Virus record (IMG/VR): IMGVR_UViG_3300030497_000008
Coordinates: 1-64,000 of that record
Source: a virus
DNA length: 64,000 nucleotides
Strand: one strand, 5' to 3'
A program made the translations under genes and the position numbers. Positions 49,421 to 54,824 of the stretch are shown here, one piece after another; position 1 is the first letter of the stretch; the number at the start of each line of letters is the position of its first letter. The notes beneath the pieces were generated by a model, which searched no databases, was not told where the DNA came from, and worked only from the letters and a program-made list of their open reading frames with translations.

Positions 49421-49669
49421 TTATTTTTTGTCCTTTAATCCCCTCACTTCCTCATCTGACAGCTCTGCAAATAAATCCCTATAGTTCATATTGAACATAT
49501 CTTCCAACTGCATCAATTTATCTTTTCTAGGGAATCTGAGACCTCGTTCCCAGTTACTAACTGTACTATAACTAACATTTAGTTTCTGACATAACTCAGG
49601 AATGTCAATATTCCTATCTAATCGAACCTTTCTTAAACGCAATACAACTTCTTTATTTTTATAAATCAT
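49421..49669 (-). CDS. XRE-family HTH transcriptional regulator
   Basis: ELCQKLNVSYSTVSNWERGLRFP. Confidence 0.9.
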   Translation of the reverse strand: MIYKNKEVVLRLRKVRLDRNIDIPELCQKLNVSYSTVSNWERGLRFPRKDKLMQLEDMFNMNYRDLFAELSDEEVRGLKDKK

Positions 49670-49850
49670 TTCTGATACTCTCCTTTATGTTAAGTTTTAA
49701 ATGTTTTTATTTAGAGTATAATACTTTGTTTACTAATTGTCAAATATATTTTTTACTATTAGTATTTATTTTATTCTTGATAGAGGGAATTAGTATTTAT
49801 TTCTGATGAAGGGAATTACTTTTTATTAAATTAAAATGGGGCAACCTAGA

Positions 49851-49987
49851 TACCCTATTTTATTTTATCTATTCTCTATATAATATTATTTATATTATTA
49901 TTAATTATTAAATATTTATTTATAATATTAGTTATTAAATATAACTCTGTAATATTATATAGACGTCCGAAAAAATAAAATAGGGTA
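49851..49987. repeat. 16-bp perfect inverted repeat flanking a very AT-rich core
   Basis: TACCCTATTTTATTTT 49851-49866 / AAAATAAAATAGGGTA 49972-49987. Confidence 0.85.
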
Positions 49988-50213
49988 CTGTGTCAGAGAT
50001 AAACCTAATAGAAGTGTGTATCAAGATGTAGAAGGTATTTACTATAGAATAGGACTAATTGTATTCATTAAGGTATAAAACATCCTCATCGAGCTCTCAG
50101 ACCCCTTAAAAGTTAAATTAATATGTGTATGCGTTGTGTAAATTCCATCAGAAATAATTATTCAGAATATTTAAAATATTTTTTATAATTACAAGGATTC
50201 TTGTATCAGATTT

Positions 50214-50223
50214 TGTTATAATA
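50214..50223 (+). promoter_or_regulatory. Late promoter motif TG(T/C)TATA(T/A)TA ahead of the ncRNA/tRNA cluster
   Basis: Same motif at 44546(-), 48113, 51700, 55064, 56865, 56935, upstream of late genes. Confidence 0.7.
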
Positions 50224-50415
50224 GAGTTGTAGGATGTTCCTCCTGCGGTATCCATGTTCTCTCCTCCTCTAACCTCGTGAAGACAAGGATATCATTCGTA
50301 AGTTTAATACGCCTTAGAGCAAATGTGCGGAAACACGTTTTCTCTCCCTTTATTAGAATTTTCTTATACCCTTTGCATGTCAGTACGATATGTAGGGGGT
50401 AACTTTTTATATCAT

Positions 50416-50488
50416 GTGCTTGTAGCTCAGTCGGTAGAGCGCCAGATTGTTAATCTGATGGTCGTTGGTTCGATTCCAACCTAGCACG
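50416..50488 (+). tRNA. tRNA-Asn(GTT)
   Basis: Cloverleaf, anticodon loop TT-GTT-AA, TTCGATT T-loop, G73. Confidence 0.9.
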
Positions 50489-50578
50489 TTATCATCCTTT
50501 CAATTATCGTAACTCATACTCAACCAAATATACGGTTGACTACACCTACCTAAGCAGGGAGACGATAGTTGAATTTCA

Positions 50579-50652
50579 TGGGTTAGTGGCTTGGTTAGCT
50601 CAGAAGCCTTGAAACAGCATCTGCGATGGTTCAATCCCATCTCTACCCACCA
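50579..50652 (+). pseudogene. Degenerate tRNA-like element
   Basis: Acceptor TGGGTTAG/CTACCCA, T arm GATGG-TTCAATC-CCATC and CCA end, but non-canonical D and anticodon arms. Confidence 0.55.
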
Positions 50653-50655
50653 CAT

Positions 50656-50729
50656 GGGAGTTTAGTTTAGTGGTAAAACCTCGGTCTCCAAAACCGAAGT
50701 CATATGTTCGATTCGTATAGCTCCTGCCA
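50656..50729 (+). tRNA. tRNA-Trp(CCA)
   Basis: TCGGT-CT-CCA-AA-ACCGA anticodon arm, encoded CCA. Confidence 0.92.
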
Positions 50730-50730
50730 C

Positions 50731-50818
50731 GGAGGGTTGGCAGAGTGGATTATTGCAGCGGTCTTGAAAACCGCCGAGGGTAAAACCTCCGTGAGTTCAA
50801 ATCTCACACCCTCCTCCA
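50731..50818 (+). tRNA. tRNA-Ser(TGA)
   Basis: GCGGT-CT-TGA-AA-ACCGC, long variable arm, encoded CCA. Confidence 0.93.
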
Positions 50819-50820
50819 TT

Positions 50821-51392
50821 GGGGATATAGTGTAGAGGTAAACACGCAAAAAGGAGCAGTAAAATGCCGACTTGTAAAAAATGTAATGTAGATTTTCCAA
50901 ACTTCATGAAAATAGAAGGTAAACGTCGCAATTTACAAAAACGTCAGTATTGTGTTGATTGCAGTCCTTTTGGTAGACGTAATACAAAACAGATACATTT
51001 AGATAACAACAAAGAGATTGAGTGTACTTGTACCTTATGTGGTAAAGATTATGTATATGCTCGTAGTACAGGATGCACAAAGACTAAATGTAACACTTGT
51101 TGCGTTAGGGTTAATAGACAGAAACTGAAAATCAGAGCGGTAGAGTATAAAGGTGGCGCTTGTCAACGCTGTGGCTATAACAAAAGTTATAGAGCCTTAC
51201 AATTTCACCATCTAGACCCAGAAGAGAAAGATTTTCAGATAGGCGGAAAAGTTATTCTATGGGATAAAATCAAAAAAGAATTAGATAAATGTATTTTACT
51301 ATGCGCTAACTGCCATCTTGAAGAACACGAATCTCTTGATAACCTTAAATTACGTCTACCGTGAAGCACGGGTTCGAACCCCGTTATCCTCG
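50821..51392 (+). pseudogene. tRNA-Asp(GTC) split in the anticodon arm by a 505-nt HNH insert
   Basis: 5' half 50821-50848 (GGGGATA, D arm GTGT/ACAC); 3' half 51354-51392 (GTC-TA-CCGTG, T arm ACGGG-TTCGAAC-CCCGT, TATCCTC-G); acceptor strands pair. Confidence 0.85.
50864..51364 (+). CDS. HNH endonuclease with N-terminal zinc fingers
   Basis: GGACQRCGY...LQFHHLDP...CILLCANCH..EH; several CxxC; RBS AAGGAG. Confidence 0.9.
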   Translation: MPTCKKCNVDFPNFMKIEGKRRNLQKRQYCVDCSPFGRRNTKQIHLDNNKEIECTCTLCGKDYVYARSTGCTKTKCNTCCVRVNRQKLKIRAVEYKGGACQRCGYNKSYRALQFHHLDPEEKDFQIGGKVILWDKIKKELDKCILLCANCHLEEHESLDNLKLRLP

Positions 51393-51538
51393 TAAACTAT
51401 AAAATCTCAGTCATGTTGAGATAGCTTAGGCGAAACCCTAAGCAAAGCATGTCCGTCCTAAGGAGACATTATAAAAAGAAGGCAAACATGACGTGGCGAG
51501 CTATCCGCAGACACGTAAAAGAATAGATAGTGATACAT

Positions 51539-51613
51539 GCCGAAGTAATCCAATCAGGTAGAGATAGCGGTTTTAGAAACCGTCCAGTGAGGGTTCGACC
51601 CCCTCCTTCGGTA
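51539..51613 (+). tRNA. tRNA-Leu(TAG), short variable loop
   Basis: GCGGT-TT-TAG-AA-ACCGT, GAGGG-TTCGACC-CCCTC, A73. Confidence 0.85.
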
Positions 51614-51622
51614 TCATATTTT

Positions 51623-51704
51623 GGCAGAATAGTCAAGCAGCAACGACAGGTGACTGTAAATCACCCCTCATTCGAGTTCGCAGGTGCAAGTCCTGCTTCT
51701 GCTA
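51623..51704 (+). tRNA. tRNA-Tyr(GTA), atypical D and T loops
   Basis: GGTGA-CT-GTA-AA-TCACC, variable arm, acceptor GGCAGAA/TTCTGCT, A73. Confidence 0.85.
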
Positions 51705-51761
51705 TATTAAAACATGACGAGAGTTTTTATTCTCGTCTATACTTATTTGAGGGGGCAATAC

Positions 51762-52598
51762 ATGATAAATGTGAAGGATTTTAGTGGATTAACACCTGCC
51801 GTACAGATACAGAATGCTATCAATGCAGCAGCCTTATCAACATCTTCATCAAAGACCGTACTGCTAGAAGAGAAAGATTATTACCTTGAATCATCTCTTA
51901 CATTGCTAAATGATGTAGAGTTATTGTTTGGCTACCGTTCAAGACTAGTTATTGGTGGTAATTTCCCTGTTTTATTAATAGGGCGAAATGCTTCTGTCAC
52001 AAATCCATTCATAGCTATCGATTCCCCGAATTTTGATTCACTTGTCTTTTCCTTTGACGGTAAGAATAAATATTACAATACATGGAATAAGACAGCTATA
52101 AAAGATGGTGTAGTCGTTAACTGGACAGGTTCTCACAAAGGTGTTGGTATCCGACTCTTTTCTGGAGGAACTGACCATGAGATTTCATTTGTGGATATAT
52201 CGAATGTCAAATTAGTCGGTCTAAGAAAAGGTATTGAGCTAGAGGCTAAAGCGCCAACAACAGGAATGGCGTGGGTAAACGCTAATAGATTCAATAACAT
52301 TTCCATAGAAGACTGCGTAGAAATGATTACGATTGACAGTAGTGAGACAATCCCAAATGAATGTAGTGGTAACATTTTCTCAGGACTTCAACTACAACCA
52401 TCTACAGCAACAACAAAAGTCTTGAAAGTAAGCGGGCAGCATAACCGATTCGATGGTATGCTCTGGGACATCTCGTTAATACCTACAGCTAAATTCGTAG
52501 ATATTACAGCGAACAGTTCCTACACGAAAATAGACTTTAATCGTTCCTTACCTAGTACGAAAGTACAGGATAGTGGGGCGAGCACAATATTACTATAG
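51762..52598 (+). CDS. Pectate-lyase-like right-handed beta-helix protein
   Basis: N-terminal NVKDF.G....IQNAINAA motif and Asn/Gly-rich beta rungs; ATG after GAGGGGG. Confidence 0.6.
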   Translation: MINVKDFSGLTPAVQIQNAINAAALSTSSSKTVLLEEKDYYLESSLTLLNDVELLFGYRSRLVIGGNFPVLLIGRNASVTNPFIAIDSPNFDSLVFSFDGKNKYYNTWNKTAIKDGVVVNWTGSHKGVGIRLFSGGTDHEISFVDISNVKLVGLRKGIELEAKAPTTGMAWVNANRFNNISIEDCVEMITIDSSETIPNECSGNIFSGLQLQPSTATTKVLKVSGQHNRFDGMLWDISLIPTAKFVDITANSSYTKIDFNRSLPSTKVQDSGASTILL

Positions 52599-52618
52599 CG
52601 CATTCGTGCGCTTTTCTT

Positions 52619-52705
52619 GGAGGGGTACTCAAGCGGTGAAGAGGTTAGTTTGCTAAACTAATAGGTCGAGTAATCGGCGCGAGGGTTCGAATCCCTTCCC
52701 CTCCT
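52619..52705 (+). tRNA. tRNA-Ser(GCT)
   Basis: TTAGT-TT-GCT-AA-ACTAA, long variable arm, GGAGGGG/CCCCTCC acceptor. Confidence 0.92.
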
Positions 52706-52845
52706 TACTAGTTTTATGGTGAGTATAGCTATACGCTGTGCTCATTTTTTATGCCCTATTTTACGGGTAGATATTTGTACATGGTATAATTAAAGTAAGG
52801 AAAAAGTGTTGAAAGCATTATATTAATAGAGATAGAGGTGTTGTC

Positions 52846-53112
52846 ATGAGCTTTCATCAAGTAGAAGATGTATGGATTAAAGCGAAGTCTCTCCTATCTC
52901 AAGGATACACGTGGATTGAGGTTGTAACATACTACAAAATGCTAGGTGGTATGAAAGTGAAGGTATACGTCTATTTAGATAGAGTGAAATATAGAATCGT
53001 AGGCGTTGCAGAAGAACCAGACAAAGTACTCCTAGAGAATAAACACGGAGAGATAATTAGGGCAAATTACACAGATGTCAAGAACGGTAGGAAGAAGTTC
53101 GATTGCGATTGA
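52846..53112 (+). CDS. Hypothetical protein upstream of portal
   Basis: RBS GAGGTG; position directly before the portal gene. Confidence 0.7.
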   Translation: MSFHQVEDVWIKAKSLLSQGYTWIEVVTYYKMLGGMKVKVYVYLDRVKYRIVGVAEEPDKVLLENKHGEIIRANYTDVKNGRKKFDCD

Positions 53113-53144
53113 GCTTTGCCCTATTTATTTTATTATAAGGTGGT

Positions 53145-54824
53145 ATGCAAATGAGCTTTTTAGACTTTTTTAGGTTTAAAAAACGCCCATCTACGACGAC
53201 ACTGGAACTTATGAATCCAGTAGATAAGCAGGAGCTATCTATTGCAATACGAGGGTTAGAAGAAGAGACAGTAATGAAGAGCGCAAACGCTGGTCAAGGA
53301 CGAGCTAAGGCGTATGAAGAGCCTATATTAGGTCAGTTCTCTATTAATCCAGATTACAAAGAAGCCCCGTCAAAAGATGGACGATACAACTTGCTAGAGA
53401 ATTTAAAAATCTGGTCAAGTAAAAATATTATTGTTAACGCAATTATCAACACCCGTGTGAACCAAGTATCAATGTTCTGTTCACCCGCCCGCTACAGCAA
53501 CAGAGGTGTCGGCTATGAGGTTCGATTAAAAGACCCATTAAAGACCCCTTCGAGTCACGAGAAAGCGACTATCGAGCGTATAGAGTCGTTTCTGGAGTAT
53601 ACAGGACGAGTCAAGGATGATTTTACACAAGATAACTTCCGAGCGTTCATTAAGAAGATTACTCGTGATAGATTAATATACGACAAAATAAACTTTGAAT
53701 TGATTTACGATAAAGATGGAGAGCTTGGTAGATTTAAAGCTATTGACGCATCCACCATTTACGTAGCAGTCGATGAAAAAGGAAAAGAGCGTAAAGGCGA
53801 TAACGTTGAGAAGTATGTACAGGTTTTAGACCGTAAGAAGGTCGCAGGGTTCAAAGCGAACGAGATGGCATGGGAAGTACATAATCCTCGAACAGACATC
53901 CACGTCGGACGATACGGGTACTCAGAACTTGAATTATGTTTAGAGCACTTACAGTACCATGCAAATACCGAGTTATTTAACGCTCGTTACTTTGCTCAAG
54001 GTGGTACGACTCGCGGGTTATTACATATTAAAACAGGGCAAGAGCAATCTCGTCATGCGCTACAGTCATTCCGTCGTGAATGGCAAACAATGTTTAGTGG
54101 TATTAATGGGGCATGGAAGATTCCAGTTGTATCAGCAGAAGATGTTAAGTTCATTAACATGACACAATCATCTCGTGATATGGAATTCGAAAGATGGCTA
54201 AACTACCTTATCAACGTTATGTGTAGTATTTACGCTATCGACCCTTCTGAGATTAACTTCCCGAACCGTGGCGGAGCGACAGGTAGTTCTGGTAGTACTC
54301 TAAATGAAACGAGTGCTAAAGAGAAGAACCGTATCTCTCGTGACAAAGGTTTAGAGCCGTTACTTAAGTTCTTAGAAGATATCATTAACAAGTACATCGT
54401 ATCTCAGTTCGGAGATAAATACATATTCGTATTCGTAGGTGGAGATGCAACGACAGAGAAAGAGATTCTAGAATTACTAGAGTTGAAAACAAAAGTCGGT
54501 ATGTCATTCAACGAAGCGCGTAAAGTACTTGGATTACCAGAAATTGAAGGCGGAGACGTTATCAATAGTGCGTTCCACGTTCAAAGTAAAGGTCAGATTT
54601 TACAAGAAAAACTTATCCAGTCTAAAGCAGCACAAGAAGGCTCAGACGATAAACAAACATCTGAGATGAAGCAGCAAGGTTTAGATGGCTCTAACGCTAA
54701 GGTATCTGGTAAAGATAATGGCGTGGGTAAGGATGGACAAGTTAAAGGTAGTCGTAACGCTAACTCTACTAAAGAGGGAGGTAAAGGCGAAAATGGAGAA
54801 ACGTATAATCGAGATACTCGATGA
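53145..54824 (+). CDS. Portal protein
   Basis: YGYSELE, NARYFAQGG..RG, FRREW....G..GAWKIPV, DMEF, IDPSEINF motifs. Confidence 0.92.
   Translation: MQMSFLDFFRFKKRPSTTTLELMNPVDKQELSIAIRGLEEETVMKSANAGQGRAKAYEEPILGQFSINPDYKEAPSKDGRYNLLENLKIWSSKNIIVNAIINTRVNQVSMFCSPARYSNRGVGYEVRLKDPLKTPSSHEKATIERIESFLEYTGRVKDDFTQDNFRAFIKKITRDRLIYDKINFELIYDKDGELGRFKAIDASTIYVAVDEKGKERKGDNVEKYVQVLDRKKVAGFKANEMAWEVHNPRTDIHVGRYGYSELELCLEHLQYHANTELFNARYFAQGGTTRGLLHIKTGQEQSRHALQSFRREWQTMFSGINGAWKIPVVSAEDVKFINMTQSSRDMEFERWLNYLINVMCSIYAIDPSEINFPNRGGATGSSGSTLNETSAKEKNRISRDKGLEPLLKFLEDIINKYIVSQFGDKYIFVFVGGDATTEKEILELLELKTKVGMSFNEARKVLGLPEIEGGDVINSAFHVQSKGQILQEKLIQSKAAQEGSDDKQTSEMKQQGLDGSNAKVSGKDNGVGKDGQVKGSRNANSTKEGGKGENGETYNRDTR

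Follow-up and report, generated by a model that had tools for sequence, protein, structure and literature searches.

The window analysed here, a 64,000-nucleotide stretch of a 161,391-bp parent genome, is Bacillus phage DNA of the Herelleviridae, Bastillevirinae. Its tRNA cluster is closest to that of Bacillus phage Maceta, a member of the same groups. ARAGORN and Rfam identify six ordinary tRNAs within 50415-52705 and call none at 50821-51392. This interval holds a tRNA-Asp gene that is split in its anticodon arm by the gene of an HNH endonuclease (Table 1). The 145-nt spacer that separates the split gene from the following tRNA-Leu(TAG) is present in Maceta as well.

Table 1. Features of the split tRNA-Asp locus (window coordinates) and comparable cassettes at three other loci
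Feature	Coordinates	Strand	Content or evidence
Intact tRNA-Ser(TGA), end 2 nt before the split tRNA	50731..50818	+	ARAGORN, Rfam
tRNA-Asp 5′ fragment, positions 1-28	50821..50848	+	28/28 identical to Maceta intact tRNA-Asp; acceptor 5′ strand, D arm, G26, anticodon stem bases 1-2 (CA)
505-nt insertion in place of CGGCT (tRNA positions 29-33)	50849..51353	+	Maceta alignment
Shine–Dalgarno AAAGGAG, 7 nt 5′ of ATG	50850..50856	+	direct sequence reading
HNH endonuclease ORF, 166 aa + TGA	50864..51364	+	PF01844, phrog_2255
tRNA-Asp 3′ fragment, positions 34-73	51354..51392	+	38/39 identical to Maceta; anticodon GTC, TA, 3′ anticodon stem CCGTG, variable loop AAGC, T arm, acceptor 3′ strand, G73
Next intact tRNA, Leu(TAG)	51538..51615	+	ARAGORN, Rfam
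Spare-tRNA HNH cassettes splitting a tRNA	L021:1446-2127; L049:1434-2139; L115:462-1063

The intact gene is found in Maceta (L001:1069-1142) and in phage Belinda (L002:603-679), where it reads ...ACACG CACGG CTGTCTA CCGTG AAGC ACGGG.... The window reads ...ACACGCA, followed by 505 nt and then GTCTACCGTGAAGC.... The 5′ fragment is also 100% identical to the tRNA-Asp of Belinda over 31 nt, and the sole difference of the 3′ fragment from Maceta is T-loop position 60. The insertion junctions are clean, with a loss of 5 nt. The acceptor (7 pairs, one of them G-U), the D arm, the T arm and G73 are all intact. The insert consists of a 15-nt leader (AAAAGGAGCAGTAAA) and then coding sequence only, and is thus 97% coding. 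The ORF overlaps the tRNA from G34 onward and ends in CGT CTA CCG TGA, so that its last 11 nt, the TGA stop included, are tRNA sequence: the anticodon GTC, TA and the 3′ anticodon stem. A sequence-only reading of this stretch had described each of these points, namely the preserved arms and G73, the replacement of positions 29-33 by 505 nt holding a ribosome binding site and a 166-amino acid HNH ORF, and the last codons with a stop supplied by the tRNA. All are borne out by the sequence itself, by reading against the Maceta and Belinda genes and by the Maceta alignment. It had also proposed an alignment with relatives that have an intact tRNA-Asp, and those of Maceta and Belinda match both halves.

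The tRNA-Asp of the window phage has been inactivated by this insertion. Searches of the whole 161-kb genome with ARAGORN and Rfam revealed no second tRNA-Asp, and thus this tRNA has been lost to the phage. The HNH gene itself is present in a single copy, with no second copy in the 161-kb genome.

The HNH gene is missing from Maceta, although the same tRNA cluster is present there with conserved flanks, which are 265/269 (98.5%) and 353/366 (96.4%) identical to those of the window. This comparison of presence and absence involves one close endonuclease-free relative, Maceta. The two tRNA halves differ from Maceta at 1 of 67 positions, and the flanks at 4 of 269 and 13 of 366. As the halves are as Maceta-like as the flanks, a recent insertion accounts for their intactness without selection, and on these comparisons the insertion appears both recent and precise. 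Proteins 97-98% identical to that of the window are encoded by phage Vinny (AMW61828.1) and by a 159,983-bp phage contig, with the same tRNA-derived KLRLP end. The presence of this C-terminus in two further phages indicates that the junction is not an assembly artefact. A search of IMG/VR for the exact junction sequences gave no match, and a search of genome and metagenome contigs for close relatives returned distant ones only.

There are several other differences between the two clusters. In Maceta, tRNA-Asn is separated from the next element by a tRNA-Gln that is lacking from the window (window 50490-50579 against L001:662-828), and therefore the clusters differ by at least two tRNA genes in phages that are otherwise 96-98% identical here. 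The element at window 50580-50652 is a degenerate tRNA-like sequence with an Rfam tRNA score of just 17.4 bits (E 6); its Maceta counterpart, different at 3 positions, is annotated as tRNA-Leu (L001:829-901). The tRNA-Tyr of the window (51622-51705) has the T loop TGCAAGT against TTCGAGT in Maceta (U55 to G, G57 to A). A stem change renders its T stem fully Watson-Crick, and the Rfam score is still 48 bits. These changes alter the universal GGTTCRANTCC motif, the target of SegB-type enzymes, and might thereby protect the gene from a nuclease that reads the T arm. The usual anticodon loop of tRNA-Asp is CUGUCAC. The loop of these Bacillus phage tRNA-Asp genes is CTGTCTA, in which position 37 is a pyrimidine and position 38 an A, and it is conserved in four loci (window 51354-51360; L001:1096-1108; L002:630-642; L018:707-781 and 1121-1195). 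Evasion of anticodon nucleases is one possibility.

The protein is assigned as an HNH endonuclease on the basis of profile matches and conserved residues. It matches the Pfam HNH family PF01844 with an E-value of 1.5e-5 (25.4 bits against a cutoff of 21.4) and phrog_2255 with an E-value of 1.5e-54 over residues 1-163. An alignment of 16 homologues places two four-cysteine zinc modules at the N-terminus, whose eight cysteines are invariant or nearly so. The C-terminal HNH finger comprises C100, C103, H115, H116, C147, N149, C150, H151 and H155; all are invariant in the 16 homologues except N149 and H155, which are nearly so. The AF2 model has a mean pLDDT of 85 and predicts a strand-strand-helix arrangement over residues 112-156, with values below 50 for tail residues 159-166, the part read from the tRNA. 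Foldseek returned weak matches, all of them to HNH nucleases (Cap5, T4 endonuclease VII, the Cas9 HNH domain and Gme HNH), and no PDB fold match was found at E ≤ 0.001. Sequence matches in the PDB were rejected as spurious zinc-finger matches. Against its ortholog at locus L018 the ORF has a pN of 0.20 and a pS of 0.92. As the synonymous sites are saturated at this pN, the protein has been maintained by purifying selection.

Relatives of the protein were found by tblastn in 448 phage records, many of them on annotated tRNAs. Members of the family lie between tRNAs in Bacillus phage BCU4, in Acinetobacter, Yersinia, Vibrio and Shigella phages and in a T5-like Vibrio phage, and the end of the ORF in those phages abuts or overlaps the next tRNA. 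A survey of the family collected 142 loci with 76 distinct ORFs carrying the family motif. A same-strand tRNA lies within 1.5 kb of 56 of the 76. The stop codon falls within 5 nt of the next tRNA, or inside it, in 25, and a further 14 have a tRNA within 100 nt. The protein thus belongs to a large family of phage HNH enzymes, phrog_2255, whose genes reside in clusters of tRNA genes. Two observations were made in the course of the survey. At L023:1501-2070 the HNH ORF and the downstream ARAGORN tRNA overlap by 68 nt, so that nearly the whole tRNA is read through. An HDV-like ribozyme (RF02682) is matched below threshold, with 34.3 bits against a gathering score of 44 and an E-value of 0.0067, at L045:3104-3172, a stretch of a phage tRNA array that immediately follows a tRNA.

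The association with tRNA-Asp extends to a diverged ortholog, P0002, of 71% amino acid identity, which is found in two Bacillus thuringiensis assemblies and one Logan contig. Its array (L018) holds three tRNA-Asp genes. The ORF ends in ...ATT AGG TAG and is followed by CACGGGTTCA. A stretch of 16 nt at this end, AGGTAGCACGGGTTCA, agrees exactly with positions 41-57 in the resident copies of tRNA-Asp, a match equalled by 0 of 500 shuffles. The stop codon lies in the variable loop and is again supplied by the tRNA. A 5′ remnant of tRNA-Asp upstream of this gene (GTAAACAC) was dropped, with 54 of 500 shuffles as good, and so was an acceptor remnant downstream (111 of 1000). Apart from the 16 nt, the tRNA-Asp shell is gone at this locus. 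It follows from the tRNA-Asp tail of P0002 that the subclade had joined the 3′ part of a tRNA-Asp before the two lineages diverged. The link between the subclade and tRNA-Asp is therefore an old one, with the enzyme gene kept and the shell not preserved. A separate element of this array precedes the HNH gene by 105 nt (L018:1315-1396): an 82-nt tRNA-like gene, called tRNA-Thr(agt) by ARAGORN with the anticodon at position 32, which has normal acceptor, D and T arms and an aberrant middle.

Further split tRNAs were sought with a script that looks for an orphan T arm and acceptor 3′ strand and, over 300 nt upstream of them, for a perfect 7-bp partner with U8 and a D arm after it. As exact acceptor pairing is required, it finds intact shells only. 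It matched the window locus and L024, L045, L049, L081, L115 and L127. In the first 98 loci there were five matches, against a mean of 0.86 and a maximum of 4 with shuffled acceptors (200 trials). Another case, a tRNA-Ile(GAT) interrupted in its D arm at L021, was spotted by eye. At least seven more HNH genes therefore lie inside split tRNAs. Those at L024, L045, L049, L127 and L021 are members of the phrog_2255 family, and those at L081 and L115 belong to another HNH subfamily. In the nested cases a 7/7 acceptor, a D arm and a T arm surround each ORF.

The insertion points vary among these cases, from the D arm to the anticodon loop to the whole anticodon arm, so that these are independent events and the family is without a single conserved target position. 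The ORF at L024 extends across the T arm and acceptor to a stop directly after the discriminator, and the stop codon at L045 is apparently in the anticodon loop, although the parse of this locus is tentative. In three of the cassettes (L021, L049 and L115) the HNH ORF is immediately followed by a complete spare tRNA. The spare is Ile(TAT)-like at L021 and L049, and at L115 the anticodon loop CTTTTAC occurs in the broken and spare copies alike. Removal of 1469-2073 from L021 leaves a plausible tRNA-Ile(GAT) with an ARAGORN score of 118. No group I signal was found by Rfam in the nested cases.

Group I introns in the anticodon loops of tRNA genes are a known arrangement, and some of them carry HNH ORFs. 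A search of positions 49500-53500 against Rfam revealed no group I or group II intron and no ribozyme at E-values up to 10. The same search does detect the group I intron in the tRNA-Thr of L091 (RF00028, 76.6 bits). Restoration of the tRNA by simple deletion was also rejected. None of 912 joined variants scored like an intact tRNA; the best, constructs of 81-91 nt, reached ARAGORN scores of 105-108 against 121 for the intact Maceta gene. As five tRNA bases are missing, splicing would be unable to rebuild tRNA-Asp. The sequence-only reading had likewise seen no intron-like non-coding sequence and no means for simple splicing to restore the tRNA, and both statements stand, given the Rfam result, an insert made up of leader and ORF only, the missing CGGCT and the joined variants.

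Shorter anticodon-loop inserts are seen elsewhere in such arrays. Inserts of 200-230 nt occur at L091:1125-1426, L026:160-441, L046:1105-1385 and L062:2064-2339; that of L091 is the group I intron, and the other three have no Rfam match at E ≤ 0.1. At L063:407-545 and 652-795, and identically in L065, there are inserts of 50 and 66 nt, which are too short for a group I intron. The tRNAs that bear them are Leu-TAA and His-GTG (ARAGORN with introns), and an Rfam tRNA alignment spans 407-544 with 43 bits.

The explanation considered probable is that a free-standing HNH homing-endonuclease gene, of a family associated with tRNA clusters, has inserted into the anticodon arm of the phage’s own tRNA-Asp. 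The insertion took out five bases and brought its own ribosome binding site and ORF, which now ends 11 nt into the 3′ part of the tRNA. During co-infection, the enzyme may recognize and cut the intact tRNA-Asp genes, or tRNA genes more generally, of related phages. Repair of the break from the genome that carries the endonuclease would then spread the gene. The interrupted allele would be immune as its target site is destroyed, and the insertion would be tolerated because phage tRNA genes are dispensable. The tRNA pieces would look perfect since the event is recent, and not since they are needed. These steps are drawn by analogy with free-standing homing endonucleases in general and with SegB in particular. 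The presence and absence of the gene among near-identical phages, the tie between the family and tRNAs and the signature of purifying selection all fit with homing. They lend support to the earlier proposal of a free-standing homing endonuclease, as a reading of the sequence comparisons.

The HNH gene is probably expressed from the transcript of the tRNA cluster. The cluster transcript probably starts near a promoter-like site at 50161-50189. A promoter of the gene’s own was rejected, as the candidate has just a 9/12 match and lies inside the tRNA. The tRNA-Ser ends 2 nt upstream, and ordinary tRNA trimming would thus free the message whether the shell is folded or not.

It is possible, though unlikely, that the split tRNA is itself put to use, as the sequence-only reading had suggested. 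The acceptor and T arm would pair across the 505-nt insert, and RNase P and 3′ trimming would release a closed, tRNA-capped endonuclease mRNA of 572 nt, similar to tmRNA, with the shell stabilizing the message or throttling its translation. This would set the stability of the mRNA and a low level of translation. The predicted folds are compatible with such a structure. Both the minimum free energy (MFE) and centroid folds of the 573-nt RNA retain the 7-bp acceptor helix, the D hairpin and the T hairpin, and the predicted MFE is -136.1 kcal/mol, with a z-score of -2.49 and 0 of 100 shuffles folding as well. Pieces of a tRNA whose acceptor strands pair perfectly also surround at least five further HNH genes of the family, and the L024 ORF is read through the T arm and acceptor to stop right past the discriminator. 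In addition, endonuclease expression has been linked to tRNA processing for SegB (PMC2330249), and the tRNA region of T5 is annotated with several stable tRNA-like RNAs. A functional shell would likewise show perfect preservation and a closing fold.

These features may also have other sources. The predicted closure of acceptor and T arm would follow from descent from a tRNA, and as the search selects intact shells, their perfection is partly an ascertainment effect. The halves are no better conserved than the flanks in comparison with Maceta, and hence there is no sign of selection on them. Most family members have no shell at all. In the single diverged relative linked to the same kind of tRNA the shell is not conserved: the L018 locus keeps 16 nt of tRNA-Asp only, yet its ORF is conserved, and the other apparent remnants are no better than shuffles. 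Furthermore, termination of translation at the TGA, which lies 9 nt short of the T arm, would require the ribosome to unwind the shell. If a functional shell were nevertheless true, the recurrent layout of an HNH gene in a tRNA shell would be an adaptation of the family for expression from tRNA operons.

Less probable still is an HNH protein that is not, or not only, a homing enzyme, with its insertion in tRNA-Asp being incidental. The protein might instead promote recombination or amplification of the tRNA array as a counter-defence, in the manner of SegB, or act on tRNA or RNA. SegB drives segmental amplification of tRNA genes and aids the evasion of tRNA-targeting defences (PMC13096335). 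The spare tRNA behind the HNH gene in the L021, L049 and L115 cassettes and the unusual CTGTCTA anticodon loop of the phage tRNA-Asp would be in keeping with such a role. Against this, the insertion here removes a tRNA and neither adds nor amplifies one, the region is without a tandem repeat, and the protein is built like small DNA-targeting HNH endonucleases, with zinc modules and an HNH finger. The weakest reading, removal of the 505 nt from the RNA so that a functional tRNA-Asp results, can be rejected as highly improbable: phage tRNA anticodon loops do host group I introns, as in the tRNA-Thr of L091 (RF00028), and the intron mode of ARAGORN finds inserts of about 200 nt in other tRNAs of such arrays, but Rfam yields neither an intron nor a ribozyme match at E-values up to 10, an insert that is 97% coding leaves no space for a ribozyme core, positions 29-33 (CGGCT) are absent with no sequence near either junction to supply the CGG that would pair with CCG, and no credible joined tRNA can be made.

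Homing endonucleases in phage tRNA clusters are known, with SegB and the T5 enzymes as examples, and endonuclease genes are also known in tRNA introns. The likely homing insertion described here is best placed by comparison with these. SegB of T4 and T6 is a free-standing GIY-YIG endonuclease encoded in the tRNA cluster, which targets tRNA genes through the T-arm motif GGTTCRANTCC and for which cleavage and homing have been demonstrated; the stop codon of segB is removed by the processing of tRNA-Arg, and the gene is absent from close relatives (PMC2330249, PMC13096335). The window gene is similarly free-standing among phage tRNAs, with an ORF end entangled with a tRNA, and is missing from close relatives. 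It differs in that it encodes an HNH rather than a GIY-YIG enzyme, and in that segB lies between tRNA genes, whereas the window gene sits inside one and destroys it. In addition, homing by SegB is established by experiment, whereas that by the window enzyme is predicted.

[quoted passage not shown] 2004 where that work is cited in PMC2330249 and PMC3326045. In the T5 record (NC_005859), the genes hegC, hegD and T5.069 share 14-24 nt with the tRNA that follows, an overlap of the kind also seen for many relatives of the window gene. In contrast to the window gene, they lie between tRNAs and are not nested, and BLASTP detected no similarity between the window protein and these three tRNA-region HNH genes.

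An endonuclease gene placed directly in a host gene, leaving two pieces and no intron or intein, has a parallel among protein-coding genes. MobE of Aeromonas phage Aeh1 is an HNH gene embedded in the ribonucleotide reductase gene nrdA, as given by reference 38 in PMC2330249, and the “fractured genes” of Dassa et al. 2009 (PMC2677866) are host genes split without an intron or intein. The protein pieces in these cases still make a working product, whereas tRNA-Asp has lost five bases and is not reassembled. The group I introns of tRNA genes share with the window locus an HNH ORF that interrupts the anticodon arm, with a real example in a similar phage array (L091), but the window locus has no ribozyme, its exon bases are missing and its ORF runs into the 3′ exon. 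The likeness to tmRNA and to RNA1, RNA2 and RNA3 of T5 (NC_005859) lies in the predicted fold only, in which an acceptor/T-arm module encloses a long internal domain. The window shell is a broken tRNA-Asp and not a dedicated gene, and its ORF is a normal one led by a ribosome binding site.

The literature searches turned up no account of an HNH gene that lies within a tRNA gene without an intron. The locus presents a third arrangement, in which the endonuclease gene sits in the tRNA gene itself, no intron being present, and takes its stop codon from the tRNA. The layout is a clean and instructive case and not a new RNA class. It also has consequences for annotation, as the broken tRNA is missed by tRNA finders and the end of the ORF is easily misjudged. 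Judging from its sequence, the protein is a candidate for a natural tRNA-Asp-specific HNH enzyme, whose target could be read from the intact alleles of sister phages. The locus shows that tRNA genes in phages are expendable enough to serve as landing pads, and the nested cases, some of them with a spare tRNA, suggest that these elements help to reshape phage tRNA repertoires.
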